Shown piece after piece: positions 9,571 to 60,405 of a stretch of DNA of 64,000 nt. Location: contig CAVQNH010000007.1 of the NCBI GenBank assembly GCA_963713815.1, positions 90 through 64,089 on the forward strand. The letters run 5' to 3'. This DNA comes from an uncultured Actinomycetes bacterium (GTDB lineage Bacteria > Actinomycetota > Actinomycetes > Streptosporangiales > Streptosporangiaceae). Positions within the stretch are counted from its first letter, which is position 1; the number at the start of each line of letters is the position of its first letter. A program made the position numbers and the translations under genes. Below the pieces are notes generated by a model. That model had not been told where the DNA came from. It ran no database searches and saw only the letters and a list, made by a program, of their open reading frames with translations.

Positions 9571-9626
9571 CTGAAGGCATCTGTCTGAAGGCATCCGCTG
9601 AAGCCATCCGTACTCAAGCATCCGTG
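9571..9626. repeat. Tandem array, 4 units of 13-15 bp (ctgaaggcatccg-like)
   Basis: Units: ctgaaggcatctgt / ctgaaggcatccg / ctgaagccatccgta / ctcaagcatccgtg. It is followed by a bulged hairpin at 9631-9657 (gaaccatgat gtgcg gatcatgggttc). Confidence 0.85.
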
Positions 9627-9901
9627 CCGTGAACCATGATGTGCGGATCATGGGTTCGCTTATCAAACTGCCTGCAGGTCGGATACCAGGCAGCGAGCAC
9701 GGAGGATAGGTGAGAATGCTGGCACCGTCCCGCCAGCAAGTCATAACCACACACGATGCAGCCGCCAGATGGACCACATCAGGGCGTCGCCGGGGTCGTC
9801 CTCGACCACCTGCACGCCGGCCGGGCGTGCCGCACATGTGACCTCCTCGCCTCTGGAAGATCAGCCGGTGGTTTACGGCCTCGGGTGGCTACAGTTCGTT
9901 C

Positions 9902-10453
9902 GTGGTCAACGTCGAGCTGGTCCGCGCCGGCGAACACCTTGTCGGAACGGTTGGCGAGCAGCGGGTCGAGCTCGTGCTCGATATCCCGAACAGTCGTGCT
10001 GGCATCCGCGGCGAGAGCCTCGGCGCGCCGGTCGGGGGCTACTGGCGGATCGAATCCAACTTCAACACTCTTGACTCGGTCGGGCTGTTCCTCGGAGAGT
10101 ACGATGGCAGACCGGTCCATCTGCGAAGCGACGTCCATCTGACGCCTCATTACGCTGTGCGCCACGCCGACGTTTCTGGCGCTGTCGGCGAGCAAGAACT
10201 TCGAGCGCATGTCGCGCCGGTCGAAGCGCCCGCCTACGGGCCGACAGTCATGAGCATCGACGGAGACTTCGACGGGGCCGTAATTACCTTGTTCGTCACC
10301 GTCGCGACCGATCTGAGCGAGGCTCACATCAACGGGGTCATCGGCGGACACACGATCTGCATCGACGCAGCACTTTCATCGGTCAGCGGACAATATGACG
10401 GGCCGGCAGCACTGTTCCCACTGCTCGTGAGCTGCCTGCTGTACTTCATCTGA
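9902..10453 (+). CDS. Hypothetical protein (beta-rich, hydrophobic C-terminal tail)
   Basis: I preferred the plus frame over the overlapping minus ORF 9779..10351 because third-codon positions are strongly G/C-biased in the plus frame (gtc aac gtc gag ctg gtc cgc gcc ggc ...). GTG start. The C-terminus reads ALFPLLVSCLLYFI. Confidence 0.5.
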   Translation: MVNVELVRAGEHLVGTVGEQRVELVLDIPNSRAGIRGESLGAPVGGYWRIESNFNTLDSVGLFLGEYDGRPVHLRSDVHLTPHYAVRHADVSGAVGEQELRAHVAPVEAPAYGPTVMSIDGDFDGAVITLFVTVATDLSEAHINGVIGGHTICIDAALSSVSGQYDGPAALFPLLVSCLLYFI

Positions 10454-10783
10454 CGTCAAGGGCACGGATCACGATGGCGACGGCTGGCCCCCCGGAACCT
10501 CGAGCGGGCTTCGCACATCTAGTCCCAGCGGTGCGCGCTGTCAGATAGCGGAACCTCATACGGGAACACCTCAGGTCGGAGGGGACGCCTGCGAGAGGCC
10601 GTCCCGTAAGACCCGCCTGGCTTGCCTGACCTCTTCTGAGGCTCCCCTCCCGGTTTTGCGGGGCTGCCGCCGCGGGGTAAGTAGTCGGAAATCCTGTGGT
10701 GTGATTCCCGCCGATGGTCGCCACCTCGCTGTGCCATGTCCTGGGCATCTGTGGAGGATTCCCGGCGGGGTTGTCACCAGTGG

Positions 10784-11800
10784 TTAGCCGGGACAGCGGT
10801 GCCTGAAGGCCCTGATCTGCAGGTTGACTGTCACTGTGACCGGGCTGGGCATAGCTCGGATGCGGGCAGTCAGCTCCTGCGGCGTGATGTGGCGGGCGCT
10901 GGGGCCCATGGTCACAAGCGCGGTGAGTTCGGCGTGGTCCAGGTTCAGGTGATAGTTCACGGCGATGACGCCGGGTTGGGCATAGTCGCGGTAGGCCTCG
11001 GCGAGCCGCCGGGACTTGCGCTGGTCGATGCCGATCATGCCGAGTGGCCTGATGAGTTCCCGCAAGTGGGCGGCACCAGGCTGGGCGATGATCAGTGTGC
11101 CGTCAGGTGCCAGGATGCGGCCGGTCTCGGCGGCGTTGCGTGGCCCGAAGATGCTCAGCACCACGGCCGCCGAGCGGGCCGCGAGCGGAAGAGGCTGCCA
11201 TACGTCCGCGCCGAGGGCCGCTGCCCGCCGGTGCGCCCGGGCGGCACGCCGCAGGGCGGGGACCGACAGGTCGATGCACACGCCGTGCCGGTTCGGCAGG
11301 GCGTCCAAGGTATGGGCGAGGTAGTAGCCAGTGCCCCCGGCCAGGTCGATCGCCAGGCCCGGCCTGCGGCGGTCATAGTGTGCGGCCAGTGACCGTATTG
11401 CCGCGGCGAGCGGCTGGTAGTGTCCGCCGCTGAGGAACCGGTCGCGGGCTGCGACCATGACGGTGGTGTCGGCGGTGCCCGGCCCGGTCCGGCCACCGGT
11501 GAGGTTGGCGTAGCCGTGGCGGGCGATGTCGAAGCTATGCTTGCGGCCGCACGCCAGGCGGCTGCCGCCCAGGTAGACCGGGCCGGCGCAGACAGGGCAC
11601 CGCAGATACGTGACGGCCGCGGCGAGCGCCCGGCGGCGCTCCGCAGGTGAGGGGAAGCTGCCAGGTCGCCGGAAGGCAGGATTGCGTGGGTCCACGGAAC
11701 GTCCCGTCGGGTCGGAAGGATGACCAGCCGACGGCGGCACGCATGGGACGACGGAGCCACGTGAGGGCTCAAGCCGGAGGGCCGGACGGCCCGTGGCCAT
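10784..11800 (-). CDS. rlmA: 23S rRNA (guanine-N1)-methyltransferase, RlmA/TlrB family
   Basis: Zn-finger plus family motif: LRCPVCAGPVYLGGSRLACGRKHSFDIARHGYANL. SAM motif: AIDLAGGTGYY. The start is uncertain; the N-terminal 35-60 codons may be untranslated. Confidence 0.8.
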   Translation of the reverse strand: MATGRPALRLEPSRGSVVPCVPPSAGHPSDPTGRSVDPRNPAFRRPGSFPSPAERRRALAAAVTYLRCPVCAGPVYLGGSRLACGRKHSFDIARHGYANLTGGRTGPGTADTTVMVAARDRFLSGGHYQPLAAAIRSLAAHYDRRRPGLAIDLAGGTGYYLAHTLDALPNRHGVCIDLSVPALRRAARAHRRAAALGADVWQPLPLAARSAAVVLSIFGPRNAAETGRILAPDGTLIIAQPGAAHLRELIRPLGMIGIDQRKSRRLAEAYRDYAQPGVIAVNYHLNLDHAELTALVTMGPSARHITPQELTARIRAMPSPVTVTVNLQIRAFRHRCPG

Positions 11801-13441: not shown

Positions 13442-13497
13442 CAGGCCTCCTCGGGCGCTTGCCCTGCACTCATCATGGAACTACTTTGGCTAGCACT

Positions 13498-14072: not shown

Positions 14073-15725
14073 CTAGGGGCGCGCACCTACCTGCACATGC
14101 ACCCACATTCCTGCGTGCAGGCACGACCACCGCACCAAGCAAGTCCCCGGCTGGACCCTCACATGTGACGATGGCTGTCCTCTACCGAGTGGCACCCCGC
14201 GCGTGGCCGGCCGTTCCAGCCGCATCGCCGGGGGCCGGTCGCCGGGTGCCAGGTCGCCGGGCACCGCCGCCGCGCGGACCGGCCTGCCGTGCTCCGGTGC
14301 AGCGGCCACGACCGGAGCCGGGCGATTCCCGCGCCGGGGCAGGATCATGCCGAGCGCCGCGCCCACGAGGGCTATCCCCGCTCCGACAGCGGACGCGGTC
14401 ACGAAGCCCGAGTTGAACGTGCTCGGGGAGGCGTAGCTTCCGGTGGCGGCGAACGCGGCGCCGAGGATGGCCACGCCGAACGCGCCGCCCAGCTGCCGCA
14501 TGGTGGTGAACGCCCCCGACGCCGTGCCGATGTCGGCGGCGGCCACCGTGCTGGTGGCGGATCTGGTCAGGGCGGGGATGGCCAGCCCGAGTCCTGCACC
14601 GGACAAGCACATCGGGGCGACCAGCATCCAGTAGCTGACGCCGGGCGCGGCGATCGCCGCGATCCAGGCCATCCCGGCGGTCTGGGCCAGCAGTCCGGTG
14701 ACCACCAGCGATCGTGCACCGATCCGGTCCGCGAGAGCACCGGCCCGCGGCGCGATCAGGAACGGGACGATGCCCCACGGGAGCAGGCGGAGCCCGGCAT
14801 GGAACGGGTCCTGGCCTAGCACCACCTGCTGGAACTGGGGCATGAGGAAGATCGCACCGGTCAGCGATGCATTGAGCAAGAAGACCACGGCGTTACCGGC
14901 CGAGAAAGCGCGGGCCCGGAACAGGCGCGGCGGCAGCATGGGACGGGCCGCCCGGCGCTCCCAGGCCACGAAGGCCAGCGCGGCCAGCGTTCCGGCGGCC
15001 AGCGAGCCTGCGGTCTCCGCGCTCCCCCAGCCAGCCGAGTTGCCGCGCACCAGCCCCCACACGAGCCCCAGGGCCGCCGCGGTGACCAGCAGCAGGCCGG
15101 GCACATCCACCGTCCCGCCCGACCGGGCGGTCTCCCTCAGCCGGCCCAGGACCAGCGGGATGGCGGCCAGCGCCACCGGCACGTTGAGCCAGAAGATCCA
15201 CGGCCAGCCCAGGCCCTGGGTGACCGCCCCGCCGAAAACGGGCCCGAGCACCGCGGCGAGCGCCGTCACGCTGCCGTAGATCCCGATCGCCCAGCCGCGC
15301 CGCGCGGGCGGGAACGCGCCGTTCAGCAGGGCCAGGGCCATCGGCATGATCATCGCCGCGCCTGCGCCCTGCACGGCGCGGGCCGCGATCAGGACGCCGG
15401 CATCGGGGGCCAGCGCGCACGCCGCGGACGACACCGCGAACAGGGCCAGCCCGGCCGCGAAGATCCGGCGGCGGCCCAGGCGGTCACCGGCCGCTGCCGC
15501 GGTCATGAGCAGCACCGCGAAGCTCAGCGTGTACGCGTTGACCGTCCATTCCAGGTCGCCCAGGGAAGCGCCCAGGTGGTGGCGGATCGCCGTGAGGGCG
15601 GTCGCGACCACCAGGGCGTCGAGAATCACCATGAACGACGCCAGCGAGGCCAGCCCGAGCACCCACCGCTGTTCCGGTGTGGTTCTGGCGGGCCGCCCGC
15701 TGATCTCGCTCTTCGTCCGCAGCAC
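14073..15725 (-). CDS. MFS transporter, DHA2 (EmrB/QacA-like, 14-TMS) family
   Basis: RWVLGLASLASFMVILDALVVATALTAIRHHLGASLGDLEWTVNAYTLSFAVLLMTAAAAGDRLGRRRIF. Many TM segments follow. An 80-aa C-tail contains a small 3-unit array at 14226-14269. Confidence 0.9.
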   Translation of the reverse strand: MLRTKSEISGRPARTTPEQRWVLGLASLASFMVILDALVVATALTAIRHHLGASLGDLEWTVNAYTLSFAVLLMTAAAAGDRLGRRRIFAAGLALFAVSSAACALAPDAGVLIAARAVQGAGAAMIMPMALALLNGAFPPARRGWAIGIYGSVTALAAVLGPVFGGAVTQGLGWPWIFWLNVPVALAAIPLVLGRLRETARSGGTVDVPGLLLVTAAALGLVWGLVRGNSAGWGSAETAGSLAAGTLAALAFVAWERRAARPMLPPRLFRARAFSAGNAVVFLLNASLTGAIFLMPQFQQVVLGQDPFHAGLRLLPWGIVPFLIAPRAGALADRIGARSLVVTGLLAQTAGMAWIAAIAAPGVSYWMLVAPMCLSGAGLGLAIPALTRSATSTVAAADIGTASGAFTTMRQLGGAFGVAILGAAFAATGSYASPSTFNSGFVTASAVGAGIALVGAALGMILPRRGNRPAPVVAAAPEHGRPVRAAAVPGDLAPGDRPPAMRLERPATRGVPLGRGQPSSHVRVQPGTCLVRWSCLHAGMWVHVQVGARP

Positions 15726-15889
15726 GGGTATCTCCTTTTGAGCTGTTCGTCATCGGTGGTTGAGGCACCGCTGGAAGGCACCACTGGTTGAGGCACCACT
15801 GATTGAGACACCGGAGGACGCGGATTCTTGGCGATGACTTCGGGCCGCCTCCGGTGTCCTTACCTATGCGGCCGATGCTGGGAGGACCC

Positions 15890-15991
15890 GTGCAGACTGA
15901 CCCCGTGCAGACTGACCCCGTGCGATCGACCCGTGCAGATCGACCCGTGCAGATCGACTCTGTGCAGATCGACTCTGTGCAGATCGGCTCT
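15890..15991. repeat. Tandem array of 7 units (15,15,13,14,15,15,15 bp), each beginning GTG, immediately 5' of the sigma-factor core
   Basis: Units: gtgcagactgacccc x2, gtgcgatcgaccc, gtgcagatcgaccc, gtgcagatcgactct x2, gtgcagatcggctct. Total 102 bp. Confidence 0.9.
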
Positions 15992-22155: not shown

Positions 22156-23112
22156 ATGCCTGCGTCAGCGAACCCGGCGCGCGCCCGGCGCCCGTCAGCA
22201 CGTGCCGGGCGCACCGGCGGCGCACCGCCCGGCCCGGCCGGCAGCGAGCCCGCCGGCACCGATCCCGCCGCCACCGGCGACGCGGCCACCGGCCCTCCGG
22301 CCAGCACCGACGCCACCACCACCGGCAACGCCGCCGCGACCCAGCCCGACTACCGGGTCGAGGCCCTGGCCAAGGGCCTGCGCGTGCTGTCGGTGTTCTC
22401 CGAGCAGCGGCCCACCTGGCGGATCACCGACATCGCCGCCGAGGTCTCGCTCCCGCTGCCGACCGCGTACCGGATCGTGATGACGCTGACCGCCGAGGGC
22501 TACCTGGACCACCTCCCCTCCGGCGAGTACCGCCCCGGGGTGCGCGTCCTGACCCTGGGCACCGCGGCGCTGCGCAGCCTGGACCTGGTCGAGCTGGCCA
22601 CCCCCAAGCTCCAGGAGCTGGCCAACGCGACGAAGGAAACGGTGAACCTCGCCGTGCTGACCGGCGACCAGGTCCTCTACCTGGTCCGGCTGCGCAACTC
22701 CGACCTGGTCACGGCCAACATCCGGGTCGGCTCGCTGCTGCCCGCCGTGCACACCTCGATCGGCAAGCTGCTGCTGGCCTTTCTCGGTGAGGACGAGCTG
22801 GCCAAGTGCATCACCAGCGGGTCCTTCGACGGGACCACCGGGCCCAACGCCAAGCGCAGCCTCGACGAGCTGCGCCCCGAGCTGGCCGCGATCCGCGCCC
22901 AGGGCTGGGCCACGCAGGACGAGGAGCTGGCCTACGGGCTGCGCTCGGTGGCGGCCCCGGTGCGCGGCGAGAACGGCGCCGTCGTGGCGGGCGCGAACCT
23001 GGCCGTGCAGTCCCGCGACTGGCCGGCCGCCCGGATCACCCGCGAGCTGCGGCCGATGGTGCTGGCGACCTGCGCGGAGATCTCGCGGCTGCTGGGCTAC
23101 GCGGGGAGCTGA
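22156..23112 (+). CDS. IclR-family transcriptional regulator with a repeat-encoded N-terminal extension
   Basis: HTH: YRVEALAKGLRVLSVFSEQRPTWRITDIAAEVSLPLPTAYRIVMTLTAEGYL. IclR effector domain: ...LRSVAAPVRGENGAVVAGANLAV. No alternative start exists downstream of the repeat, so the roughly 60-aa N-tail is apparently translated. Confidence 0.9.
   Translation: MPASANPARARRPSARAGRTGGAPPGPAGSEPAGTDPAATGDAATGPPASTDATTTGNAAATQPDYRVEALAKGLRVLSVFSEQRPTWRITDIAAEVSLPLPTAYRIVMTLTAEGYLDHLPSGEYRPGVRVLTLGTAALRSLDLVELATPKLQELANATKETVNLAVLTGDQVLYLVRLRNSDLVTANIRVGSLLPAVHTSIGKLLLAFLGEDELAKCITSGSFDGTTGPNAKRSLDELRPELAAIRAQGWATQDEELAYGLRSVAAPVRGENGAVVAGANLAVQSRDWPAARITRELRPMVLATCAEISRLLGYAGS
22240..22344 (+). 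repeat. Degenerate 15-bp (pentapeptide) array, about 7 units, inside the IclR N-terminus
   Basis: Encodes GSEPA GTDPA ATGDA ATGPP ASTDA TTTGN AAATQ. Confidence 0.75.
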
Positions 23113-23119: not shown

Positions 23120-23686
23120 GTGGCGCGACTGCCGAAACTTCAACCGCCGTTCCGCAACGAAGACCAGCAGCGGCTCTATGCCTCGATCACGAGCGGGCCG
23201 AGAGGCGGCCGCCAGGGACCCTTCGCGCTGGTGGATGAGACCGGCGCGCTGACCGGGCCGTTCAACGCGATGCTGCTGCAGCCGGGGCTGGGCGCGGCCC
23301 TGCAGGCCCTGGGCTCCGCGGTCCGGTTCCAGGGGACGCTGCCGGGCCGGGCCCGCGAGCTGGCCATCCTGGTCGTCGCGGCGCACTGGGCGAGCGCGTT
23401 CGAGCAGCACGCCCACGAAGCCGCCGGGCGGCAGGCCGGGCTGACCGAGGCGGAGCTCGCCGCGGTCCGGGCCGGCCAGGAGCCCGGCCTGGCCGACCCG
23501 GCCGAGCGGGCCGCGGTCCGGGCGGCGCGGGCCCTGGTCCGGGCGGGTGACCTGGACGACGGGGAGTACGCCGCGGCCGTGGCCGGGCTGGGTGAGGCCG
23601 GGGTGTTCGAGCTCACCACCCTGGTCGGCTACTACGCGACGCTGGCGCTCCAGCTCCGGGTGTTCCGCGTGGACGCGCCGGCCTAG
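23120..23686 (+). CDS. Carboxymuconolactone decarboxylase (AhpD-like) family protein
   Basis: Contains ARELAILVVAAHWASAFEQHAHEAAGRQAGLTEAEL and a second helical repeat. GTG start 8 nt after the IclR stop. Confidence 0.75.
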   Translation: MARLPKLQPPFRNEDQQRLYASITSGPRGGRQGPFALVDETGALTGPFNAMLLQPGLGAALQALGSAVRFQGTLPGRARELAILVVAAHWASAFEQHAHEAAGRQAGLTEAELAAVRAGQEPGLADPAERAAVRAARALVRAGDLDDGEYAAAVAGLGEAGVFELTTLVGYYATLALQLRVFRVDAPA

Positions 23687-23769
23687 CCCCGGGCCGGCCT
23701 GGCCCCGGACTGGCCTAGCCCGGACTCGGCCCTTTTCACCCCCGGCCCACTGATAGTAGATTTCGTCAT

Positions 23770-29645: not shown

Positions 29646-29805
29646 CCGGGCGCTCCGGCGGGTTACTCTCACTGTATGAAATCGACTTTAGTATCGATGT
29701 TGACGGTAACCCTCCCGTAACCGTCCTGTCCAGGATCGAAATACAACCGATATGCCTCCGGGCATGGGAAAGCCCCGCCGCCCGGGTGGGCGACGGGGCG
29801 GGGCG

Positions 29806-29996
29806 GCGGGACCCAGGAGGCGGGGCCCGGGCGATGGGACCCGCGGGACGGGCCCGGGGACGAGGCTCAGGCGACGGGACCCAGGGGAGGGGGCTCGGGA
29901 GACGGGACCCGGAGGACGGGCTCAGGCGACAGGACCCAGGGAACGGGGCTCAGGCGGACGCGACCCACGGGACGGGCTCAGGCGACGGGGCTCAGG
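29806..29996. repeat. Degenerate tandem array of about 14 units of about 14 bp (gggacccaggggag / gggctcaggcgac types)
   Basis: It runs from the GH65 stop codon (29992-29994, inside the last unit) towards the ABC-operon promoter region. Confidence 0.8.
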
Positions 29997-40043: not shown

Positions 40044-40105
40044 CGCATCCTAGGTAACCCGGAAGGCCCGGCCTCCGGAGGCCGGGCCTTCCGGGCGGCG
40101 CACCA

Positions 40106-42554: not shown

Positions 42555-42568
42555 TGTTATTTCCTCCC

Positions 42569-42690
42569 GCTGTTGGGCTGCGCTGCTGGGCTGCACTGTT
42601 GGGCTGCCCCGTTGGGCTGCGCAGTCTGGTGTGCAGTTGTCTGGTGCGAAGTGGTGCGCAGTCGTCTGGTGCACTGCTGTTAGTGCACTG
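42569..42690. repeat. Tandem array of about 9 units of 10-15 bp (mostly 13; gctgttgggctgc-like)
   Basis: Units: gctgttgggctgc / gctgctgggctgc / actgttgggctgc / cccgttgggctgc / gcagtctggtgtgc / agttgtctggtgc / gaagtggtgc / gcagtcgtctggtgc / actgctgttagtgc. Confidence 0.85.
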
Positions 42691-43675: not shown

Positions 43676-43726
43676 CCAGCCCGGCGGCGGTCGCCGGGAG
43701 CGTACCGGGCCTGCGGGGCTGACGCC

Positions 43727-45388
43727 ATGTGCGGCATCGCGCTGATCCACGGCCCGCGCCCGGACCGGGCGGCCTTCCGCCAGATGATCGGCTCGCTCGC
43801 CCCGCGCGGCGAGGTAGAGGAGACCCTGCTGACCGACCGGCTGCTGGCCGGCACCCAGCGGCTGCGCATCGTGGACGCCGAGCGTGCGGTCCAGCCCTTC
43901 ACCTCGGCCGACGGCCGGTGGGTGCTCTGCTACAACGGCGAGATCTTCAACTACCGGATGCTCCAGGCCGAGCTGACCAGCCTGGGCCACCGGCTGCGCA
44001 CCGACAGTGACACCGAGGTGGTGCTGGAGGCGTTCCTGGAGTGGGGGGCGGGCGCGGTCAGCCGACTGCGCGGCGAGTTCGCGTTCGCCCTGGCCGACAC
44101 CGCGGCCGACCGGGTTTACCTGGCCCGCGACCCGCTCGGGGTCAAGCCGCTGTACTGGTCCCGCCGGGACGGCTGCCTGCACGTGGCGTCGGAGATCAAG
44201 GCGCTGGCACCGTTCGGCGCCCCGGTCAGCGAGGTCCCGCCGGGGCATCACGGCTGGGCCGAGGGCGGCTGGGCCCAGGCTAGCTGGGCGGGGCCCGGCG
44301 GCCCGGACGCGGCCACCGGGCCGGCCCTGGAGCCGTACGTGGACCTGCTCCGGCTCGGCGACGGCCAGCCGCTGATCGAGGACGCCGACGAGGCCGCCAA
44401 GCTGGTCCGTGCCGCCCTGGAGGACAGCATCCGGGTCCGGGTGGACACCGGCCTGACCGTCGGCGTCATCCTCTCCGGCGGGCTGGACAGCACCCTGGCC
44501 CTGATGCATGTGCGGGAGATGCACCCGGACTGCGTGGCGTTCACCATCGGCGCCCCGGCCAGCGAGGACCTGTTGTACGCACGCCGCCTGACCGCTGACC
44601 TGGGCGTGCCGCACGAGGTGATCGAGGTCCGGCCCCGCGATATCCGGCTGGCCGACATCCGGGAGGCCATCCGGCTGGGCGAGCTCACCGAGTACGGCGA
44701 CATCATCAACGAGGTGATCTCGGTCCCGCTGTTCCGGCGCATCCACCAGATGGGCATCAAGGTCGTGCTGTCGGGGGACGGCTCCGACGAGCTGTTCGGG
44801 GGGTACCCGATGTACTTCCGGGCCAGCCCGGAACAGGCCCGGCGGCTGTTCCAGCACAAGATCCGCAACCTGTGCCGGACCGAGCTGCAGCGCCTGGACC
44901 GGGCGAGCATGGGTCACGGCACCGAGCTGCGCGTGCCGTTCCTGGACCTGTCCCTGGTGGAACTGGCCATGCGGCTGCCCCGCGGGCTCAAGCAGCGGGA
45001 CGGGCAGGACAAGTGGATCCTCCGCGAGGCCTTCGCCGACCTGCTGCCCGACTACATCCGGCGGCGCCCGAAGGACATGATGTCCTACTCCTCAGGGCTG
45101 CACGAGCGGGCCCGGCTGTTCAAGCCGCTGTACCCGCGGCTGTACCGCTCGTCCGGCTACGGCCTGCTGGAACCGATGCGGCGGGACTTCGACACGGTCC
45201 TGGAGCGCTGCGGGCATGACCTGGACCGGGCCATCGCCGACAGCGCGGCGCGGCCCGACTACACCCTGGCCGAGCGGGCCCGGGACCTGGCCGGGGCAGC
45301 CCGGTGGAACGCGGTCCTGGCCGTGCGGGAACGGATCCCGGGCCGCTTATCCGCCCGCTCAGGCCCCGGCCTTGGGCGCCGGTCCTAG
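43727..45388 (+). CDS. Asparagine synthetase B-family glutamine amidotransferase
   Basis: Ntn nucleophile MCGIALIHG. Glutaminase domain: RLRIVDAERAVQPF...YNGEIFNY...DSDTEVVLEAF...RGEFAFAL...RDPLGVKPLYW. PP-loop: VGVILSGGLDSTL. SGDGSDELFGGY. A 5 x 15-bp array (44252-44326: GWAEG GWAQA SWAGP GGPDA ATGPA) lies in the inter-domain linker. Confidence 0.85.
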   Translation: MCGIALIHGPRPDRAAFRQMIGSLAPRGEVEETLLTDRLLAGTQRLRIVDAERAVQPFTSADGRWVLCYNGEIFNYRMLQAELTSLGHRLRTDSDTEVVLEAFLEWGAGAVSRLRGEFAFALADTAADRVYLARDPLGVKPLYWSRRDGCLHVASEIKALAPFGAPVSEVPPGHHGWAEGGWAQASWAGPGGPDAATGPALEPYVDLLRLGDGQPLIEDADEAAKLVRAALEDSIRVRVDTGLTVGVILSGGLDSTLALMHVREMHPDCVAFTIGAPASEDLLYARRLTADLGVPHEVIEVRPRDIRLADIREAIRLGELTEYGDIINEVISVPLFRRIHQMGIKVVLSGDGSDELFGGYPMYFRASPEQARRLFQHKIRNLCRTELQRLDRASMGHGTELRVPFLDLSLVELAMRLPRGLKQRDGQDKWILREAFADLLPDYIRRRPKDMMSYSSGLHERARLFKPLYPRLYRSSGYGLLEPMRRDFDTVLERCGHDLDRAIADSAARPDYTLAERARDLAGAARWNAVLAVRERIPGRLSARSGPGLGRRS

Positions 45389-45397
45389 CCCCCGGTT

Positions 45398-46084
45398 TTA
45401 GGCCCCGGGCTGGACGAGGGCCCAGACGACCTTGGCGGCCCGCTCGTCCGGCGCGGTAGCGTGCGGCTGGCGGCCCGGATAGTAGTAGCCCCAGCGGCTG
45501 CTTACCGCCTCCACCATTAAAAGGCCGCGGCCGGTCTCGCCGTCGTGGCTTACCTGGCCGGGTACCGGGGGGGCCGTGGCCCCGTCCCAGACCTCCGCCA
45601 GGACCTGCTGCCGGTCGGACGCGAGCCGCAGCCCCAGCGGCAGCTGCCGCCCCTCGGCGTCGTAGCCCGGGCCCTCCGTTACCGGGTCGGAGCACGCCCG
45701 GATCGCGTTGGTCATCAGTTCGGAGACGATCAGTTCCACGCTGTCGGCGAGCGCGGCCTGCCCCCACTCGGTGAGCACCAGCCGGGCGTGCAGCCGGGCG
45801 CACGGCACGGCGCCGGGCAGCGCGCCCAGCTCGAGCCGGGACTGGAGGGGCCACTGCGCGGGGCGGGCGGGATCCTCGCGGACCGTGGCGACCGGGCCGT
45901 AGTAGCCACCGGGGATGGCCAGACTGTGCTGGTCAGACGTGGCCAGGCCGGAGGAGCCGCCATAGGGGGCCGCGCCGAACCGGGTGTCCCGGGACAGGAA
46001 GCCGTACTGGCTGCCGGGGACGGGGAAGCCGGAGCGCGGTGCCGGGAATGGGCCGGTACCGGTCCGGGGCATCTCGCGGATCAC
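45398..46084 (-). CDS. ATP-binding protein of the RsbW/SpoIIAB-like (HATPase_c) anti-sigma-kinase type; WhiJ-cluster associated
   Basis: ARLHARLVLTEWGQAALADSVELIVSELMTNAIRA...LASDRQQVLAEVWDG...ETGRGLLMVEAVSSRWGYY. The N-terminal roughly 70 aa and the start are uncertain. Confidence 0.75.
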   Translation of the reverse strand: MIREMPRTGTGPFPAPRSGFPVPGSQYGFLSRDTRFGAAPYGGSSGLATSDQHSLAIPGGYYGPVATVREDPARPAQWPLQSRLELGALPGAVPCARLHARLVLTEWGQAALADSVELIVSELMTNAIRACSDPVTEGPGYDAEGRQLPLGLRLASDRQQVLAEVWDGATAPPVPGQVSHDGETGRGLLMVEAVSSRWGYYYPGRQPHATAPDERAAKVVWALVQPGA

Positions 46085-47960: not shown

Positions 47961-48160
47961 CCACCACGGGCCGCCAGTGGGGGCCGCCAGCGGGGCGCCG
48001 CCCACGGGGGGACCGCCAGGACCGGACCCGCCAGCACGGACCACCGCCACGGGGGACCGCCAGCACCGGACCCGCCGCACGGGACCACCGCCGGCACCGG
48101 ACCCGCCAGCACAGGGCCGCCACCCACGGGACCGCCGGCGACGGCCGCCAGCACCGGCCG
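47961..48160. repeat. Degenerate tandem array of about 14 units of 13-17 bp (acgggaccgccagc / accggacccgccagc types)
   Basis: Read directly from the sequence. It occupies most of the divergent spacer between the coiled-coil gene (start 47891) and the GH3 gene (start 48345). Confidence 0.8.
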
Positions 48161-54124: not shown

Positions 54125-54153
54125 ATAAGCTGCGGGGCGGAGGTGAGACATCG

Positions 54154-55817: not shown

Positions 55818-57123
55818 GCCGGTCCTGCCGGGCGCCAGCTGATCTCGAGGCAGCCCGAGCCGGTGTCATCCACATCGAGCCCGGCCCGCCAGCGGGCGAT
55901 GCTGGCAGGCGCCGGCCATGCCGGGGGGCGGGCGCCGGGGGGCAGGTGCCCGAAGGTCAGGTACAGCTCGACGTCCGGGATCGGGTCGGCCGGGACAGCA
56001 CCAGCGCGGACAGCGCCAGCCGGGACAGTGCCAGCCGGGGCAGCGCCAGCCGGGACAGCCAGTGCGGGCCAGCCGGGGCAGGGCCAGCCGGTGCAGGGCC
56101 AGCCGGGGCAGGGCCAGCCGGTGCAGGGCCAGCCAGCCCGGGATTGGCCGGCCCGGACGGCCCGAGCACGGTCATCGTGACCGTTTGCGGCGGGAGCGCC
56201 CGCAGGACCGCGTCCACCGCGTCGACGGTCGCCTGGGCCGCGTCCCGCGACGGCAAACCCGGGTCCCCGACCACCTGGATCTCGATCTGCAGGCCGCGCC
56301 CCCGGGCGGCGCCGAGCGCCGGTTCCAGCCCGGCCAGGAGTTCGCGTCCCAGCCGGGCCCGGTCCACGAGGGCGCGCCGCAGGGTGGTGGCGTGCCGGGC
56401 GCATTCCTGCCGGACCGCCTCGTCGGCGGGGTCGAGCGAGCCGTCCGCGATGCCGCGCAGCAGCGGCAGCGCCTCCACCTCCAGCAGCGCGAACCGGTCC
56501 CGCCGGTCCTCCTCGATCGCGGCGACCGCGGCGCGTTCCGCCGCCGAGCGGCTAGCCAGCTCGGCCCGGCGGGCGGCCAGCCCGGCGTGCACCCGCAGGG
56601 TGGGCCGCAGGGCGGCGAACACGCTGAGGATCACCGCCACCACGTACGTGGCCGCGGCGAGCCGGGCGATGCCAGGCGCCGCGGTCCCCAGCAGGCGCAC
56701 GATGAAGAAGCCGTTGACCGCCAGCACGAGCAGCGCCCCGGGCACCCATTCCCAGGCGGGACGGCTGAGGGCGGCGAGCGCGAGCAGCCAGACGGCGCCG
56801 AGGATCGACCAGTCCAGGACACCCGACGGGGAATGCGGCCGGCGGTCCCAGCCCACCGCGCCAACGGCCGCGACCGCCACCGCCATCGCCACCGCGGCCT
56901 GCCTCCGGGTGAGGCCGCCCCCGCGGACGCGCGGGATCACCCACCACGCGGCCACGAGCAGGCTCAGCCAGACGGCGAACGGCACGGCCGGCTGACGGTA
57001 GTCGGGGAGTTCGGCCAGCACCTGGACGAGCAGGCCGACCGGCAGGACCGCGGCCAGGATGGCCGCGAAGCGCGGGACCGCGGCCTCGGTCACGTCCCGC
57101 ACCGCCCCGGCGTGGCTCACCAT
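55814..57123 (-). pseudogene. Degenerate histidine-kinase paralogue (no H-box His, no N/G boxes) with a long pentapeptide array; frame-disrupted (-1) near 56060-56075
   Basis: It has a multi-TM N-terminus. RFALLEVEALPLLRGI sits where the paralogue has EHERLLHDTMLNTL. RGLQIEIQVVG, TVTMTVL and GLDVDDTGSGCLEISW align with the upstream kinase. Frame A reads GPAPAGPAPAGPAPAGPAPAG. Frame B reads AVPAGAAPAGTVPAGAVRAGAVPADPIPDVELYLTF. Length mod 3 = 2. Confidence 0.7.
55991..56136 (-). repeat. 15-bp tandem array, about 10 units, inside the degenerate kinase gene
   Basis: Minus-strand units: ctggccctgcaccgg / ctggccctgccccgg (x2 each), then ctgtcccggctggcg-type units. Confidence 0.9.
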
Positions 57124-58442
57124 GACGAGTCCACCCCGACCAGGTCGGCCTCGGCCGCGGGGACGGCCCCGGGCCAGCTCATGCTGACCAGGGTTCCCTG
57201 GCCCGGCGCGGACCGTACCGACACGCGGCCGCCCCAGTCAGCCACCCGCTCGGTGATCGAGCAGCGCAGCCCCAGCCGGGCCGGATCTACCCGGGCCGGG
57301 TCGAACCCCGCGCCCGCGTCGCGCACGGTGACGTCCAGGGTGCCCGGGCCCAGGGTGCCCGGGTCCAGGGTGCCCGGGCCCAGGGTGCCCGGGTCCAGGG
57401 TGATCGTGACCCAGGCCTCTCCTGTCCCGGCGTGAGCGGCCACGTTGGCCAGCGCTTCCCGGGTGGCGTGCACGATGGCCCCGGCCACTGGTACCGGGAT
57501 GTCCGGCCCCGGATCCCGGCCGGCCACCTGCAGGTGCACGCGCAGGCCCCGGGCCCGCATCTCGCTGGCCACCGCCTCGACGTCAGCCACCAGGCGGGCT
57601 CCGCCCGGGCCGGCCGGGTCCGCGGGATCGCCGGGGGCCGCGAGCGCGTGCTCCAGCAGCGCGATGTCCTGGCTGCACCGGGCTACCACCGCCGGGCCGC
57701 TGCTCCCGCGGCTGATCGCGGTGAGCGTATTCAGCATGGTGTCGTGCAGCAGGCGCTCGTGTTCGCGGCGTTCGATGGTCCGGGACAGGACGACGTACTG
57801 ATCGTGTGCTTCCTGGTCGGCAGCGGCGAACCCACGGTCGGCCCGGGCCGCCCGCCGGTCGAGCATGCCGCGGGCCGTCCAGTGCACGGCCAGCACGACC
57901 AGCAGCAGCGCCCCGGACACCACCGGGGTGTTCCCCTGGACCCGGCCGGGCGGGGTCACCGCGACGCTGGCCAGGTAGGCCACCTCCGGAGCCACGCCCA
58001 GCAGCACGACCAGCACCCGGGGCGCGAACCAGACCGTCACGATGACCTGGCTGGTCGTGGCGACGTAGAGCCAGTTTCCGGCCACGCCGCGCATGTCAGG
58101 CGGCACGCACGTCCCGGCCATGATCGCGAGTGCGGCGTAGAAGCTGGTGTCGAGGACGATCAGCGGCCAGGGCGGGTCGCGGCGGCGCAGGTAGGCCGCG
58201 GCCGCGCACCCCCAGGCCACCGCGGCGAAAGGCCCGGCCAGCAACCACGGGTGGGCGGCGTAGTAGCCGTGCCAGATCACGACCTGCACGACGATGTAGC
58301 TAACGCCGAAGACCCGCACGAGGGCGGCCATCCGCCGGACCACCGACCTGAGCACGGCCATCGCCGGCCCGGCCGTAAACCCCCCTGACCGCCACCACGC
58401 GGCGGCCGACGCTGATAAGGAACGGGAACGAGACGACCGCAT
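57117..58442 (-). CDS. Membrane sensor histidine kinase (HisKA_3/NarX-class partner of the NarL-type regulator)
   Basis: H-box EHERLLHDTMLNTL. N-box IVHATREALANVAAHA. G-box VRDAGAGFD. C-terminus GQGTLVSMSW. The start is uncertain: ATG 58442 is chosen, while the track ORF starts at GTG 58499 inside a direct repeat. Its stop overlaps the next gene start (ATGGTGA). Confidence 0.85.
   Translation of the reverse strand: MRSSRSRSLSASAAAWWRSGGFTAGPAMAVLRSVVRRMAALVRVFGVSYIVVQVVIWHGYYAAHPWLLAGPFAAVAWGCAAAAYLRRRDPPWPLIVLDTSFYAALAIMAGTCVPPDMRGVAGNWLYVATTSQVIVTVWFAPRVLVVLLGVAPEVAYLASVAVTPPGRVQGNTPVVSGALLLVVLAVHWTARGMLDRRAARADRGFAAADQEAHDQYVVLSRTIERREHERLLHDTMLNTLTAISRGSSGPAVVARCSQDIALLEHALAAPGDPADPAGPGGARLVADVEAVASEMRARGLRVHLQVAGRDPGPDIPVPVAGAIVHATREALANVAAHAGTGEAWVTITLDPGTLGPGTLDPGTLGPGTLDVTVRDAGAGFDPARVDPARLGLRCSITERVADWGGRVSVRSAPGQGTLVSMSWPGAVPAAEADLVGVDSSW
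57333..57407 (-). repeat. 15-bp tandem array, 5 units (alternating gtccagggtgcccgg / gcccagggtgcccgg), inside the kinase ATPase domain
   Basis: Encodes PGTLG PGTLD PGTLG PGTLD between the strands WVTITLD and VTVRDAGAGF. Confidence 0.9.
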
Positions 58443-58462
58443 GGCCCGATCATAGGACGTTT

Positions 58463-58516
58463 CTCCGGTCACTCTGCGTGTTTTGCCCCCTCCGGTCACT
58501 CTGCGTACTTTGCCGG
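58463..58516. repeat. 27-bp direct repeat x2 upstream of the kinase operon (candidate response-regulator binding sites)
   Basis: ctccggtcactctgcgtgttttgcccc / ctccggtcactctgcgtactttgccgg. It is followed by the perfect palindrome tgaccggccggtca at 58521-58534. Confidence 0.85.
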
Positions 58517-58531
58517 CCGGTGACCGGCCGG

Positions 58532-60283
58532 TCAGCGCAGCCAGGCAGCCGTGTCCGGGGGGAGCAGGCCCCCGGTCACCGGGCCGCTGCTGAGCAGGAT
58601 CTCGTCGTGCGGGGGAAGGTCCACCGGCTCAGCGGACAGGTTGACGATCACGGTGACCGCGGCCGGCTCCTCGCCGCGCCGGAAACACAGCACCCCGTCG
58701 GGTGACGGCAGCCAGGCCAGCCCGGCGGTGCCCAGGCCGGGTTCGGCCCGGCGCAGCCGCAGGGCGCGCCGGTACAGCGAGAGCATGGAGCCCGGGTCGC
58801 CCGACTGGGTCTCGGCGGTCAGGTTCTTCCACTCGGCGGGCTGGGGCAGCCAGGGGCTGCTGCCCTCCGGGCCGTACCCGAACGGGGCGGCGTCCCCGGA
58901 CCAGGGCAGGGGGACCCGGCAGCCGTCCCGGCCCCGGTTGGTGTGGCCGGACCGTTCCCACATCGGGTCCTGCAGCAACTCCTCGGGCAGGTCCTCGACC
59001 TCGGGCAGGCCGAGCTCGTCTCCCTGGTACAGGTACACCCCGCCCGGCAGCGAGAACGTCAGCAGCGCGGCGGCCCGGGCCCGGCGGGTACCGAGCGCGA
59101 GGTCGGACGGCTCGCCGATCTGGCGGTCGGTCATGCTGAACGCGGTGTCGGCCCGGCCGTAGCGGGTTACGTGCCTGACCACGTCGTGGTTGCTGAGCAC
59201 CCAGGTTGGCGTCGCGCCCACCCGGTCGTGCGCGTCCAGCGTGGTGTCGATGACCCCGCGCAGCGCGCCCGCGTCCCAGGCACAGCACAGGAAGTCGAAG
59301 TTGAACACGCTGTGCAGCTCGTCCGGGAGCAGGTACCGGGCCAGCCGCTGCGCGTCGGGCAGCCAGACCTCGCCGATCAGCACCCGGTCCCCGGGATAGG
59401 AGTCCGCGATCCGGCGCCACTCCTGGTAGATCCCGTGCACCTCGTCCCGGTCGATGAACGGGTGCGGCTCGTCGGGGTCCCGGGCCGCCCCGGCCGGCGC
59501 CGCCGGGCCAGCCGGGGTGGCCCCGACCGGCGCGGAGCTGCCGGGCGTGGGGGTCGCGCCCAGGTCGGCCAGCCCGGGGTCCTTGGCCAGCAGCGCGGCC
59601 GAGTCGATGCGGAGGCCGTCCACCCCGCGGTCGAACCAGAACCGCAGCACGCTGGCGAATTCGGCCCGCACGTCCGGGTGCGCCCAGTTGAAGTCGGGCT
59701 GGCCGGGCGTGAACAGGTGCAGGTACCACTCGCCCGGTGCCCCGTCGGCCCGCTGCCCAGCTGAGGGGCCAGCCGTGGACTCCGCTGACGGCGTCCGGGT
59801 CCAGGCCGGGCCGCCGAACATCGAGGTCCAGTCGTTCGGCGGGAGCTCTCCCCCGGGGCCCCGGCCGGGCCGGAAGTGGTAGCGGGACCGCTCGGCCGAG
59901 CCGGGCGGGGCGTCCAGCGCCCGGGCGAACCAGGGCTGCTGATCCGAGCCGTGGTTCGGGACGACGTCGATGATGATCCTGATGCCGAGGTCGTGCGCCT
60001 CGGTGATCAGCTTCTCCGCCTCGGCCAGGCTGCCGAACAGCGGCTCGATCGCCCGGTAGTCGGCCACGTCGTAACCGGCGTCCGCCATGGGCGAGGGATA
60101 CCACGGGGCGAACCAGATCGCGTCGATGCCCAGCTCGGCCAGGTAGGGCAGGCGCGCGCGGACGCCGGCCAGGTCACCGACGCCGTCGCCGTTGCCGTCC
60201 GCGAAGCTGCGCACGTACACCTCGTAGATGGCAGCCGTCCGCCACCAGTCATGCGCCGAAGCGCCCTGGCCAGTGCTGGGCAC
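58532..60283 (-). CDS. aglA: GH13 alpha-glucosidase (oligo-1,6-glucosidase/AglA-like)
   Basis: [64 protein letters not shown]...[11 protein letters not shown]...[10 protein letters not shown]...GEVW...SNHDVVR. GTG 60283 has AGGAGG 5 nt upstream. An alternative ATGA-coupled start at 60436 would add a PVPAS-repeat N-tail. Confidence 0.85.
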
Positions 60284-60330
60284 GTTAACCTCCTGGAAAT
60301 CGGCGAGAGCCGACCTGTTTCTGATTATGG

Positions 60331-60405
60331 GCGCAGTGCTTGCAGGCCCAGTGCTTGCAGGCACAGGGCTTGCAGGCACAGGGCTTGCAGGCACAGGGCG
60401 CCGCG
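60331..60405. repeat. 15-bp tandem array, 5 units (gcacagggcttgcag-like), between the malG stop and the aglA core
   Basis: Units: gcgcagtgcttgcag / gcccagtgcttgcag / gcacagggcttgcag x2 / gcacagggcgccgcg. Confidence 0.9.

Follow-up and report, generated by a model that had tools for sequence, protein, structure and literature searches.

What process generates the many short head-to-tail repeats in this soil actinomycete's DNA, and how unusual are they? A stretch of 64 kb (the window) was analysed, in which at least 16 short-period tandem arrays had been reported from the letters alone. Tandem Repeats Finder (TRF) was used for the census and overlapping loci were merged, and the chance level was taken as the mean of 30 dinucleotide-preserving shuffles of the window.

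Census and density of the arrays

The arrays are far above chance expectation. At TRF scores of at least 50, 80 and 100, the window contained 28, 14 and 10 merged loci, respectively, compared with 1.7, 0 and 0 in the shuffles. All 16 listed arrays were real, as TRF backed 16/16 coordinates and each array was also read in the sequence (Table 1). The list was incomplete by at least 8 further arrays, and copy numbers had been over-called at three loci. Positions 22240-22344 had been given as 7 × 15 bp, and ~3 clear units were seen followed by degenerate P/A/T/G-rich sequence; 44252-44326 had been given as 5 × 15 bp, and ~2.5-3 units were seen; 42569-42690 had been given as ~9 × 13 bp, and two short arrays of different period were seen instead. 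Arrays made up 5.7% of the DNA, with a GC content of 78% versus 71% for the window. They were imperfect (unit match 65-100% by TRF) and are of mixed age, and in both the window and its nearest relatives the unit lengths clustered in a sharp peak at 13-18 bp.

Table 1. Tandem arrays in the window. "Added" marks the 8 further arrays; the array at 45379..45408 also lies outside the original list.
Position	Array	Setting	TRF score	Listing
9567..9624	13 bp × 3.3 (27 bp × 2.1)	stretch without called gene	79
14225..14269	three 14-16-bp units (TRF 14 bp × 2.5)	C-terminal tail of MFS transporter ORF 14073-15725(-)	60
15757..15812	15 bp × 3.9	upstream of sigma-factor gene	70	added
15885..15991	seven 13-15-bp units (TRF 15 bp × 6.9)	5' end of sigma-70-family ORF	123
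22232..22344	15 bp, ~3 clear units then degenerate (TRF 15 bp × 2.9)	N-terminal tail of IclR regulator 22156-23112(+)	60
23506..23546	21 bp × 2, in-frame duplication	ORF 23120-23686(+)	68	added
23679..23731	16 bp × 3.3	units include TAG stop of ORF 23120-23686	71	added
29792..29998	~14 units of 14 bp in 28-bp doublets (TRF 14 bp × 13.9, 28 bp × 5.5)	GH65 stop codon	179
30036..30140	24 bp × 4.4 (48 bp × 2.2), in frame	GH65 C-terminal tail	140	added
33198..33255	26 bp × 2.2, duplication	spacer	95
36146..36231	~6 units of 14 bp (TRF 14 bp × 5.4, 27 bp × 3.1)	between two convergent genes	121
37430..37534	51 bp × 2.1, in-frame duplication (17 aa, VTPVFREGVSGEAVPAE)	Hydantoinase_B	189
38132..38224	18-22-bp units × ~4.7	hypervariable linker between Hydantoinase A and B halves	115
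38454-38499	array			added
40059..40094	15 bp × 2.2	62-bp spacer, MFS stop to hydantoinase start	51	added
41802-41833	array			added
42568..42690	13 bp × 4.2, then 10 bp × 2.1	divergent promoter/5'UTR spacer	82 and 35
43623..43697	18 bp × 4.1	across TAG stop of ORF 42794-43675 and spacer before AsnB-like gene	83	added
44251..44289	15 bp × ~2.5 (GWAEG GWAQA SWAGP)	AsnB-like interdomain linker	46-51
45379..45408	13 bp × 2.3	AsnB-like stop codon, TAG within unit	39
47961..48160	compound, periods 13/14, 28, 44, 75	divergent spacer	183
55982..56136	~10 × 15 bp, with higher-order periods of 30 and 83 bp	C-terminal tail of 388-aa ORF 55957-57123(-)	213
57333..57407	15 bp × 4.5 (30 bp × 2.3, 100% match), in frame, PGTLG/PGTLD	ORF 57117-58499(-)	140
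58463..58516	27 bp × 1.9, duplication	spacer downstream of alpha-glucosidase stop	90
60330..60405	15 bp × 4.7	short spacer, permease stop to alpha-glucosidase start	112

The density had been considered abnormal for bacteria, which proved true for part of the comparisons. When 1.1 Mb of loci, mostly proteobacterial, served as the reference, the window showed 5-fold the array density, 13-fold for strong arrays, and ~125 versus 7 arrays per Mb when a length of at least 80 bp and a unit of at least 9 bp were required. Against other high-GC actinomycete loci (410 kb), however, the overall density was 1.3-fold, a non-significant difference (P = 0.13), and the excess was found in arrays of period 10-20 bp with at least 3 copies (3.6-fold, P = 5 × 10−4). 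Arrays scoring at least 80 were 1.8-fold denser than in 370 kb of actinomycete loci (P = 0.05). Streptomyces loci leaned to longer units of 18-36 bp. Among non-actinomycete loci, array density climbed with GC (Spearman 0.39, P = 0.002), noisily between GC bins. The tandem repeat load ranged from 0.8% to 7.4% of bases, ~9-fold, among related and partly syntenic contigs, which points to a lineage-specific rate modifier.

Units, positions and reading frame

The units of different loci are locus specific. The longest common substring averaged 5.21 over 21 unit consensuses, compared with 5.17 ± 0.10 for shuffled units, and no Rfam family matched the arrays. As the units of different loci were no more alike than chance, the arrays are not a dispersed element, in agreement with the original observation on both counts.

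Arrays were enriched in non-coding DNA (7.8 per 10 kb versus 2.7 in coding DNA) and near gene 3' ends, with 10/28 lying no more than 60 bp from a stop codon, where 3.9 were expected (P = 0.003). They occupied spacers, gene 3' ends, linkers, the tails of proteins and, in two cases, segments inside domains. The claim that they are confined to spacers, termini and linkers thus applied to most arrays, the exceptions being 37430-37534 (Hydantoinase_B) and 57333-57402 (HATPase_c, Pfam range 341-443), which fell inside Pfam domain ranges; the Hydantoinase_B segment is a loop of variable length among homologues. The protein contexts given with the list were confirmed for the MFS C-tail (array at ~residues 486-500, MFS_1 end at 417), the IclR N-tail (HTH domain from residue 70) and the AsnB linker (residues 175-200, between the GATase_7 end at 161 and the Asn_synthase start at 227). 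The GH65 tail array lay beyond residue 752, the end of the GH65_C domain. In the sigma-70-family ORF (Pfam Sigma70_r2/r4), every unit of the array began with GTG, and the units summed to 102 bp or 34 codons, translated as VQTDP VQTDP VRSTRADRP VQIDS VQIDS VQIGS.

In some arrays, the units carried copies of a stop codon. The array at 29792..29998 began at the TGA stop codon of the GH65 gene (- strand, 29992-32481) and stopped short of a conserved GC-rich inverted repeat. On the - strand, its units carried the stop-codon segment in copies that read TGAGCC or CGAGCC; the hairpin beside it was not called by a strict terminator scan. Between the convergent genes (36146..36231), TTAA in three units provided stop-codon copies for both strands. 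The compound array at 47961..48160 lay in a 453-bp spacer between ORF 47553-47891(-) and a GH3 gene, and the orthologous spacer was left non-coding by JGI gene calls.

Purifying selection on frame had been proposed from the periods. In the window, periods divisible by 3 were found in 11/14 coding versus 5/10 non-coding arrays, which is the expected direction without significance (Fisher P = 0.20); when 24 actinomycete loci were pooled, the difference was significant (100/123 versus 21/42, P = 2 × 10−4). C-terminal tails tolerate frame changes, as the 15-bp array at 55982..56136 was translated first as (GPAPA)n and further along as (LSRLA)n.

The arrays had no common hairpin propensity. The ssDNA fold z-scores ranged from +2.4 to −5.05, the latter at 60330..60405, where the fold beat all shuffles, and only 3/17 arrays folded better than their shuffles, indicating that structure-driven slippage cannot be general.

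Copy-number variation among relatives

Independent metagenome contigs of 95-99% nucleotide identity to the window were compared for indels (L numbers designate these and the other, more distant loci compared). Arrays, with their 5.7% of the DNA, harbored 37/45 (82%) of the indels of at least 4 bp (binomial P ~2 × 10−38), and whole units were gained and lost at array loci. No array changed at 1% divergence (L141), and at orthologous sites in relatives of 78-92% identity the arrays were missing or single-copy. The array at 9567..9624 was spanned by none of the relatives' contigs.

Around the GH65 gene, the ~14-unit array kept its copy number in L141 (99% identity) and L157, and had ~1.5 units in L089 (−148 bp) and ~4 in L092 and L091; the neighboring tail array was differently arranged in L092. 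The stop-codon array at 23679..23731 had 3 units in L089 and 1 in L092 and L091, and the duplication at 33198..33255 had two copies in L094 and L140 (96-98%) and one in L092 and L091. The IclR tail of L092 was 21 bp shorter, with a different and cleaner set of 3 × 15 bp. At the other end of the window, the array at 60330..60405 had 5 units in the window and L083 and 3 in L084-L087 (−30 bp), that at 57333..57407 was 21 bp shorter in L084-L087, and both copies at 58463..58516 were present in L083 and L084. For ORF 55957-57123(-), L084 and L085 encode products of 408 and 418 aa, respectively, against 388 aa in the window.

Differences were also seen between 40 and 48 kb. The counterpart of 40059..40094 in L081 was 17 bp × 3.2 (+46 bp). 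In L159, the array at 42568..42690 was shorter by 26 bp and 10 bp and that at 45379..45408 carried a 27-bp indel; in both L159 and L161, 43623..43697 was 56 bp shorter and 47961..48160 had several indels. The AsnB linker had 1, 2 or 3 units in homologues, tracking relatedness, and AsnB-like C-tails differed among 97%-identical relatives (553 versus 587-589 aa).

Units were homogenised within each genome, which is concerted evolution. The convergent-gene array at 36146..36231 was orthologous in L001 and had one extra unit in L081, and its unit was TTAACGCACGGGCC in the window versus CAGACGCACGGGC in L081. Orthologous loops and linkers were enlarged by nested, stepwise duplications. In the hydantoinase loop, a series of 52 -> 58 -> 67 -> 82 -> 133 -> 148 nt was found among homologues, and the window's duplication was missing from 9 aligned homologues, the tenth (L007) giving no sequence here. 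In other lineages, unrelated arrays had arisen independently at these same tolerant sites, namely the Hydantoinase A-B linker (L005 and L008), which was also rearranged in L081 and L159, a C-terminus (L004) and ~position 35000 (L081 and L002). Whole-unit changes, per-genome homogenisation, nested duplications and the concentration of indels in arrays support the local duplication or slippage process that had been proposed, and copy-number polymorphism was seen in independent metagenome assemblies.

Origin of the arrays and comparison with known systems

The arrays are very probably of a locus-specific minisatellite/VNTR type, arising by slippage or unequal exchange and filtered by selection. 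The first step would be the tandem duplication of a short stretch of mostly 13-18 bp, at times 24-51 bp, likely because the nascent strand re-anneals out of register or through a microhomology-mediated template switch. From two copies onward, slipped-strand mispairing or unequal sister-strand exchange would let the array grow, shrink and homogenise, and events that often shift two-unit blocks would give the higher-order periods of 27-30 bp. The process may act everywhere, with purifying selection clearing arrays from constrained protein cores, so that survivors would gather in spacers (especially from the stop codon to the next signal), N- and C-terminal tails, interdomain linkers and variable loops, and the surviving intragenic arrays would mostly have periods divisible by 3. 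The molecular route, be it replication slippage or recombination, is one that we infer, the mechanism itself not being visible in sequence. High GC may stabilise misaligned intermediates of 13-15 nt and thereby raise the array load in high-GC actinomycetes, notably this lineage. A generic slippage model does not account for this clade's tight unit-length peak at 13-18 bp.

On the best reading, the arrays add a new example to a known class; they resemble bacterial VNTRs most and also recall the tandem repeats of Borgs. Bacterial VNTR/minisatellite loci are used for MLVA typing and were reviewed by Zhou, Aertsen and Michiels in 2014 (cited in PMC9879509). They share with the window head-to-tail, locus-specific units of ~10-50 bp, copy number polymorphic between strains, location in spacers and tolerant gene parts, coding periods divisible by 3, and an accepted mechanism of slippage or unequal exchange; in the window, density is high (~125 per Mb, versus 7 in the mostly proteobacterial loci) and unit length is sharply peaked. 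Minisatellites are 2-4% of the variable loci in E. coli, whereas arrays make up 82% of indels of at least 4 bp here, although definitions differ between the two (PMC2884548). The tandem repeats of Borgs, extrachromosomal elements of Methanoperedens, are likewise scattered across the whole sequence with a unique unit each, genic and intergenic, the genic units being divisible by 3 and adding disordered peptides and the intergenic ones mostly not; they also turn over fast among relatives and have hot spots that recur across homologous proteins (Schoelmerich et al. 2023, PMC9879509). In contrast to the window's imperfect, GC-rich arrays, Borg repeats are perfect and A-rich and lie on a giant linear element, with nearly none on the host chromosome (PMC9879509); the window's arrays are surrounded by metabolic, transport and regulatory genes of ordinary appearance, which show synteny with actinomycete MAG contigs, and most of their density is common to other high-GC actinomycetes. 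MIRU-VNTRs are also actinomycete intergenic repeats of variable copy number, some across stop/start codons, but form one dispersed family with units of 40-100 bp, unlike the unrelated units of 13-51 bp here. Simple-sequence contingency loci of phase variation share tandem-repeat slippage in promoters and 5' coding regions, but have 1-9-bp units and very high switching rates, whereas the window's arrays were unchanged at 1% divergence (L141) and lie mostly at 3' ends.

A dedicated or biased repeat-forming process of this lineage, actively seeding arrays with a preferred step of ~13-17 bp, could instead operate, for example through an unusual replicative or repair polymerase, a lost single-strand exonuclease or flap nuclease, or an unknown Borg-like mechanism. 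The sharp unit peak, the 3.6-fold excess of short-period arrays and the wide range of repeat load among related contigs agree with such a process, and Borgs show genome-specific repeat formation without known mechanism (PMC9879509). We consider it improbable, since the overall density is not significantly different from that of other high-GC actinomycetes, density also grows with GC, noisily, outside actinomycetes, and no candidate gene was found within the 64-kb window; imperfect, mixed-age arrays that are stable at 1% divergence fit a slow generic process.

A slightly smaller probability is given to selected functional elements, be they protein-binding operator or iteron arrays, spacers tuning how a neighbouring gene is transcribed or translated, or adaptive disordered-peptide repeats. 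Several arrays do cover start-codon/RBS regions or operon spacers (15885-15991, 60330-60405 and 40059-40094), tails and linkers gain P/A/G/T-rich peptides from in-frame arrays, and the Borg authors argued for selected disordered repeats (PMC9879509). Against this, units of different loci have nothing in common and match no Rfam family, arrays are missing or single-copy at orthologous sites of relatives at 78-92% identity, copy number drifts among near-identical strains and a single array uses two reading frames; the enrichment at stop-proximal spacers and other weakly constrained sites fits tolerance better than function. Assembly artefact is excluded because these arrays recur on independent contigs with varying copy numbers, homogenised units and nested duplications. 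The chance that an assembly or sequencing artefact, or else a family of dispersed mobile repeats (REP, MITE, MIRU or CRISPR), explains the arrays is minute. Short GC-rich arrays are a known assembly hazard and MIRUs likewise occupy operon spacers, but the same arrays were found on more than 10 independent contigs (nine JGI samples plus further metagenome contigs), four contigs from four samples agreed exactly, the 14-unit array was identical in L141, an independent assembly, as expected if the arrays are not assembly noise, and the units lack both similarity across loci and intervening spacers.

The repeat behaviour is that of ordinary slippage-type VNTRs of high-GC actinomycetes, intensified only to a moderate degree in this lineage. 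Most of the arrays are probably by-products, neutral or nearly so, and a few change protein tails, linkers or gene spacing.

Tandem arrays of the window and their units

The window has a GC content of ~71% and ordinary-looking actinomycete metabolic, transport and regulatory genes, including those for an MFS transporter, a sigma-70-family factor, an IclR regulator, GH65, a hydantoinase/oxoprolinase, an AsnB-like amidotransferase, GH3, a histidine-kinase-like ATPase and an alpha-glucosidase, which are syntenic with actinomycete MAG contigs. All 16 head-to-tail arrays of the original prediction were real: Tandem Repeats Finder (TRF) reported an array at each locus (16/16), and each was also read in the sequence. 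Copy number had been over-called for three of them (22240-22344, 44252-44326 and 42569-42690), and at least eight further arrays were present. After merging of overlapping TRF rows, 28, 14 and 10 loci were counted at alignment scores of >=50, >=80 and >=100, compared with means of 1.7, 0 and 0 in 30 dinucleotide-preserving shuffles; the merged loci covered 1,997 bp (3.1% of the window).

TRF periods ranged from 12 to 51 bp, with most unit lengths at 13-18 bp, and copies from 1.9 to 13.9. Units matched at 65-100%, and the sole perfect array was 57333-57402, at period 30 alone. In many arrays the units were also grouped in pairs, with a higher-order period of 27-30 bp; duplication of multi-unit blocks would be expected to leave this pattern. 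Comparison of 21 consensus units (cyclic, both strands) gave a mean longest common substring of 5.21 vs 5.17 ± 0.10 for shuffled units, which bears out that the units are unrelated between loci and rejects a shared motif. No Rfam family matched anywhere in the 64-kb window. The arrays were 78% GC against a background of 71%, with 11.6% A. No strand or composition bias like the A-bias of Borgs, extrachromosomal elements of Methanoperedens, was detected (sense-strand GC skew -0.04; 17 arrays negative, 8 positive). Single-stranded fold z-scores ran from +2.4 to -5.05 and were better than shuffles in 3/17 arrays; hairpin or slipped-structure propensity was rejected as a common driver.

Positions of arrays and other features in the window, with their state in related contigs (L numbers). 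"Varies" indicates a copy number that differs among contigs at 95-98% identity.
Position (strand)	Feature	State in relatives
1-13000	Lower GC (63-70%); codon-usage signal weak vs the rest	No close relatives recovered
15757-15812	Additional array	
15885	Array; GTG start heads every unit	
22232; 22240-22344	Array in IclR tail; ~3 clear units	Difference solely in L092 (~93% identity)
23679-23731	Additional spacer array, 16 bp; stop codon in unit	Varies; single-copy at ~92% identity
24647-29520 (-)	Four-gene cassette: 686-aa ORF, solute-binding protein, two permease-like ORFs; one border adjoins the 23679-23731 array	Present in L141; absent from L089, L157, L092 and L091, where sequence jumps from ~29.5 kb to ~23.7-24.9 kb
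29700-29790 (-)	GC-rich inverted repeat CCCCGCCCCG...CGGCGGGG, then CTTTCCC, past the 29.8-kb array	Kept with small differences in five aligned relatives
29792	Spacer array; stop codon in unit	Varies; -148 bp in L089; about 14 units in L141, as in the window
30036-30140	Additional array	
33.2 kb	26-bp duplication	Single-copy at ~92% identity
~34850-35010	Site in ORF 34180-35388 (-); essentially single-copy	15 bp x 8.1 in L081 (6770-7034); unrelated 15 bp x 13.8 in L002 (15153-15359)
36146	Spacer array; stop codon in unit	Varies
37430	Array in variable loop of Hydantoinase_B	Varies
38132	Array	Varies
40059-40094	Additional array	Varies; +46 bp in L081
42568; 42569-42690	Array, 13 bp x 4.2 plus 10 bp x 2.1	Varies; several changes in L159 and L161
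43623-43697	Additional spacer array; stop codon in unit	Varies; -56 bp in L159 and L161
44252-44326	AsnB linker array; about 2.5-3 units	
45379-45408	Weaker array, 13 bp x 2.3, on AsnB-like stop codon; unit contains the stop	
47961-48160	Compound array	Varies; several changes in L159 and L161
47961-51167	GH3/ricin-lectin gene	Absent from orthologous place in L082 (912-971); synteny break coincides with the compound array
~54.9 kb	No insertion in window	IS-like ORF pair (DDE_Tnp_1 + DUF4096) beside TetR gene in close relatives: L084 11837-12744, L085 10799-11631, L159 21231-21767
55957-56136 (-); 55982	One 15-bp array in C-terminal tail, in two frames: (GPAPA)n, then (LSRLA)n after an irregular unit	Varies; -53/-23 bp and -30 bp in L084-L087
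57333-57402	Array within HATPase_c range	Varies; -21 bp in L084-L087
60330	Array	Varies; -30 bp in L084-L087

Density was calibrated against other loci as arrays per 10 kb.

Array density (arrays per 10 kb) in the window and in comparison sets.
Set	Score >=50	Score >=80	Period 10-20 bp, >=3 copies
Window	4.4	2.2	2.0
Closest relatives	3.5	1.9	1.9
Syntenic relatives at 78-89% aa	3.6	0.66	0.79
Other actinomycete relatives	3.8	1.6	0.53
Streptomyces (220 kb)	3.1	1.1	0.5
Other bacteria (1.1 Mb)	0.87	0.17	0.14

The density had been predicted to be abnormal for bacteria, which was borne out only in part. Against actinomycete controls this held for arrays of period 10-20 bp with >=3 copies (P = 5e-4) but not overall at score >=50 (P = 0.13), with P = 0.05 at score >=80. 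The share of bases in tandem repeats ranged from 0.8% (L003, L093) to 3-7% (window, L159, L092, L091, L161) among related, partly syntenic contigs, a roughly 9-fold spread. Together with the densities, these shares indicate that a high tandem-repeat load is a general trait of high-GC actinomycetes; the clade of the window is 2-4-fold enriched in short-period, multi-copy arrays. The 14.8-kb locus L161 (~95% identity) carried 15 arrays in 7.4% of its bases, >2x the window load. Among non-actinomycete loci, density rose with GC (Spearman 0.39, P = 0.002), and shuffles accounted for a small part of this rise only. Literature searches turned up neither this lineage nor any 13-15-bp class of actinomycete repeats, and a 2026 preprint on Actinomycetota repeats gave no per-genome densities usable for calibration.

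Copy-number variation and growth of the arrays

By hydantoinase protein, the nearest species-level genomes were uncultured actinomycete MAGs (85% and 83% identical), followed by a Streptosporangiaceae MAG (78%) and Actinospica (73%); the genome-contig scan returned no relative above 85% amino-acid identity. Close relatives were obtained solely from metagenomes: protein searches found clusters ~97% identical to window proteins in JGI soil metagenomes, and the contigs of these clusters together with a GH65 metagenome scan, drawn from many different samples, covered 21.9-64 kb of the window at 91-99% nucleotide identity. The left part at 9.5-16 kb lay outside this comparison, and the region of lower GC at the left end may be horizontally acquired DNA.

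Copy-number polymorphism, which the original prediction had proposed to look for, was found at the same loci in related contigs, and nearly every array had changed at 95-98% identity. L081 was longer by 15 bp (one unit) past the hydantoinase stop and by 15 bp within the 51-bp duplication. Six pairwise alignments were analyzed for overlap of indels with TRF arrays; this replaced comparison of each indel with the adjacent equal-length segment, which was unsuitable because indels often differ from one exact unit. Of the indels >=4 bp, 37/45 lay inside TRF arrays of the longer allele, although these occupy a mere 5.7% of sequence (binomial P ~2e-38), and several of the eight outside were still small tandem duplications. 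L141, an independent assembly 99.05% identical over 6.4 kb, showed no indel >=4 bp, and four contigs from four samples agreed exactly. The recurrence of the same arrays in independent metagenome contigs, together with these two agreements, excludes an assembly artefact, in line with the earlier view that the arrays are not assembly noise. The arrays are slow: none had changed at 1% divergence, and most had at 3-5%.

Units were homogenised within each genome: units of the array past the hydantoinase stop resembled TTAACGCACGGGCC in the window, CAGACGCACGGGC in L081 and TGTAATGCACCGGC in L001. Growth was stepwise and nested. The hydantoinase loop was shortest in distant homologues (52 nt) and somewhat longer in nearer ones (58-67 nt). 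It reached 82 nt in L082 through a 15-bp duplication, 133 nt in the window through a 51-bp duplication that encloses the older 15-bp one, and 148 nt in L081 through an additional 15-bp duplication. The AsnB linker held 1, 2 or 3 GWAxG-like 5-aa units, tracking relatedness. Tolerant sites of the window gained unrelated arrays in other lineages, such as the hydantoinase A-B linker (51 bp x 3.1 in Actinospica, 33 bp x 2.9 in L008) and the hydantoinase C-terminus (21 bp x 5.6, in frame, in L004). The site at ~35.0 kb, with unrelated arrays in two relatives, is thus a recurrent hot spot.

Position relative to genes and reading frame

Array density was 7.8 per 10 kb in non-coding vs 2.7 per 10 kb in coding DNA. 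Arrays were enriched within 60 bp of a stop codon (10/28 vs 3.9 expected, P = 0.003) and not significantly at start codons (7 vs 4.3 expected). Coding arrays occupied protein tails and linkers and, in two cases (37430 and 57333), segments inside domains, so that the predicted confinement to spacers, termini and linkers holds for most arrays but not for these two. The predicted frame rule, that translated arrays have periods divisible by 3, was significant when 24 actinomycete loci were pooled (100/123 coding vs 21/42 non-coding, P = 2e-4) but not in the window alone (11/14 vs 5/10, Fisher P = 0.20).

C-tails tolerate frame changes. Products of the alleles of the 55.99-kb array were 388, 408 or 418 aa long. 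AsnB relatives carried alternative tails (553 or 587-589 aa) at the 13-bp array on the stop codon, and metagenome AsnB-like proteins at 97% identity ranged from 539 to 589 aa; P0255, the sole 587-aa member aligned, differed from the window protein in the C-terminal tail only. Together these data suggest that the AsnB-like C-tail is swapped as the array changes in copy number or frame. The inverted repeat past the 29.8-kb array resembles a terminator, though one with no long T-tract. A strict intrinsic-terminator scan did not call this conserved hairpin, and we therefore infer, rather than observe, that the array lies between stop and terminator.

Classification, mechanism and significance

By defining features the arrays are bacterial VNTR or minisatellite loci: units of 12-51 bp fall within roughly 6-100 bp and lie head-to-tail, copy number differs at the same locus between strains or close relatives, and each unit is locus-specific with no dispersed family. 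The prediction that they are not one dispersed element, such as REP, MITE or CRISPR, was likewise supported by the unit-similarity test. REP/MITE-type elements place the same palindromic element at many intergenic sites; here no sequence was shared, and fold z-scores were mostly no better than those of shuffles. CRISPR arrays consist of identical repeats with unique spacers of similar length between them, whereas the window units abut without spacers and no Rfam CRISPR family matched. MIRUs, one sequence family of 40-100-bp units dispersed at many loci, were rejected on the unrelated, mostly 13-18-bp units. Contingency SSRs have units of 1-9 bp, switch at a very high rate and lie in promoters or 5' coding regions; the longer units and the enrichment at stops, not starts, disagree with this, and arrays that are unchanged at 1% and mostly changed at 3-5% divergence are not contingency loci. 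Iteron or operator arrays keep a unit conserved across relatives as a protein-binding site and were rejected on sequence grounds, as orthologous sites carry different units or a single copy.

The window arrays also resemble Borg tandem repeats in being genome-wide, locus-unique and fast-turning-over and, when loci are pooled, mostly frame-respecting in genes. Borg units are perfect, without SNPs, and A-rich; genic units are all divisible by three and most intergenic units are not; and the repeats lie on a giant linear extrachromosomal element and are rare in the host chromosome (PMC9879509). The window arrays differ in their imperfect, GC-rich units and in their setting among ordinary-looking genes syntenic with actinomycete MAG contigs, with the density shared by related chromosomal loci.

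The predicted local duplication or slippage process under selection is supported by whole-unit variation, homogenisation, nested growth and location. A primary tandem duplication would arise, then expand, contract and be homogenised via slipped-strand mispairing or unequal sister exchange, and the outcome would be filtered by purifying selection. This classical model fits the observed facts, and the GC-richness of the arrays is compatible with stabilisation of GC-rich intermediates during misalignment, without proving it. Neither the 13-18-bp peak nor the load differences between lineages are explained by the model. A heritable replication or repair change in the clade would address them and seems to us improbable; it would bias the genome towards insertions, with tandem duplication in steps of 13-17 bp as the prevailing indel mutation. 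Candidates would be loss of an ssDNA exonuclease or flap nuclease, or a changed polymerase. If true, such a change would be the equivalent, on a bacterial chromosome, of the process that forms Borg repeats, itself unexplained, and comparative genomics could then use the spread of load among related contigs to locate the gene responsible.

Under slippage and selection, the arrays are a well-documented new example of an already known VNTR kind. Under definitions that differ from those used here, only 2-4% of the variable loci in E. coli are minisatellites (PMC2884548), so that the dominance of arrays among indels here is notable in degree, not kind. The practical value is modest but real. Most indel variation among wild relatives of this uncultured or poorly sampled soil actinomycete falls in the arrays, which makes trouble for short-read assembly, strain-level comparison and gene calling, the last because a change in copy number moves starts and stops and yields alternative C-tails. 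The arrays are potential strain markers, and they provide a clean natural series in which stepwise tandem duplication has built variable loops, linkers and disordered tails. Should an altered repair or replication gene lie behind the lineage-specific excess and the 13-18-bp step, it could be tracked down through the graded relatives; otherwise, the arrays are a well-documented case of ordinary VNTR biology in high-GC genomes.
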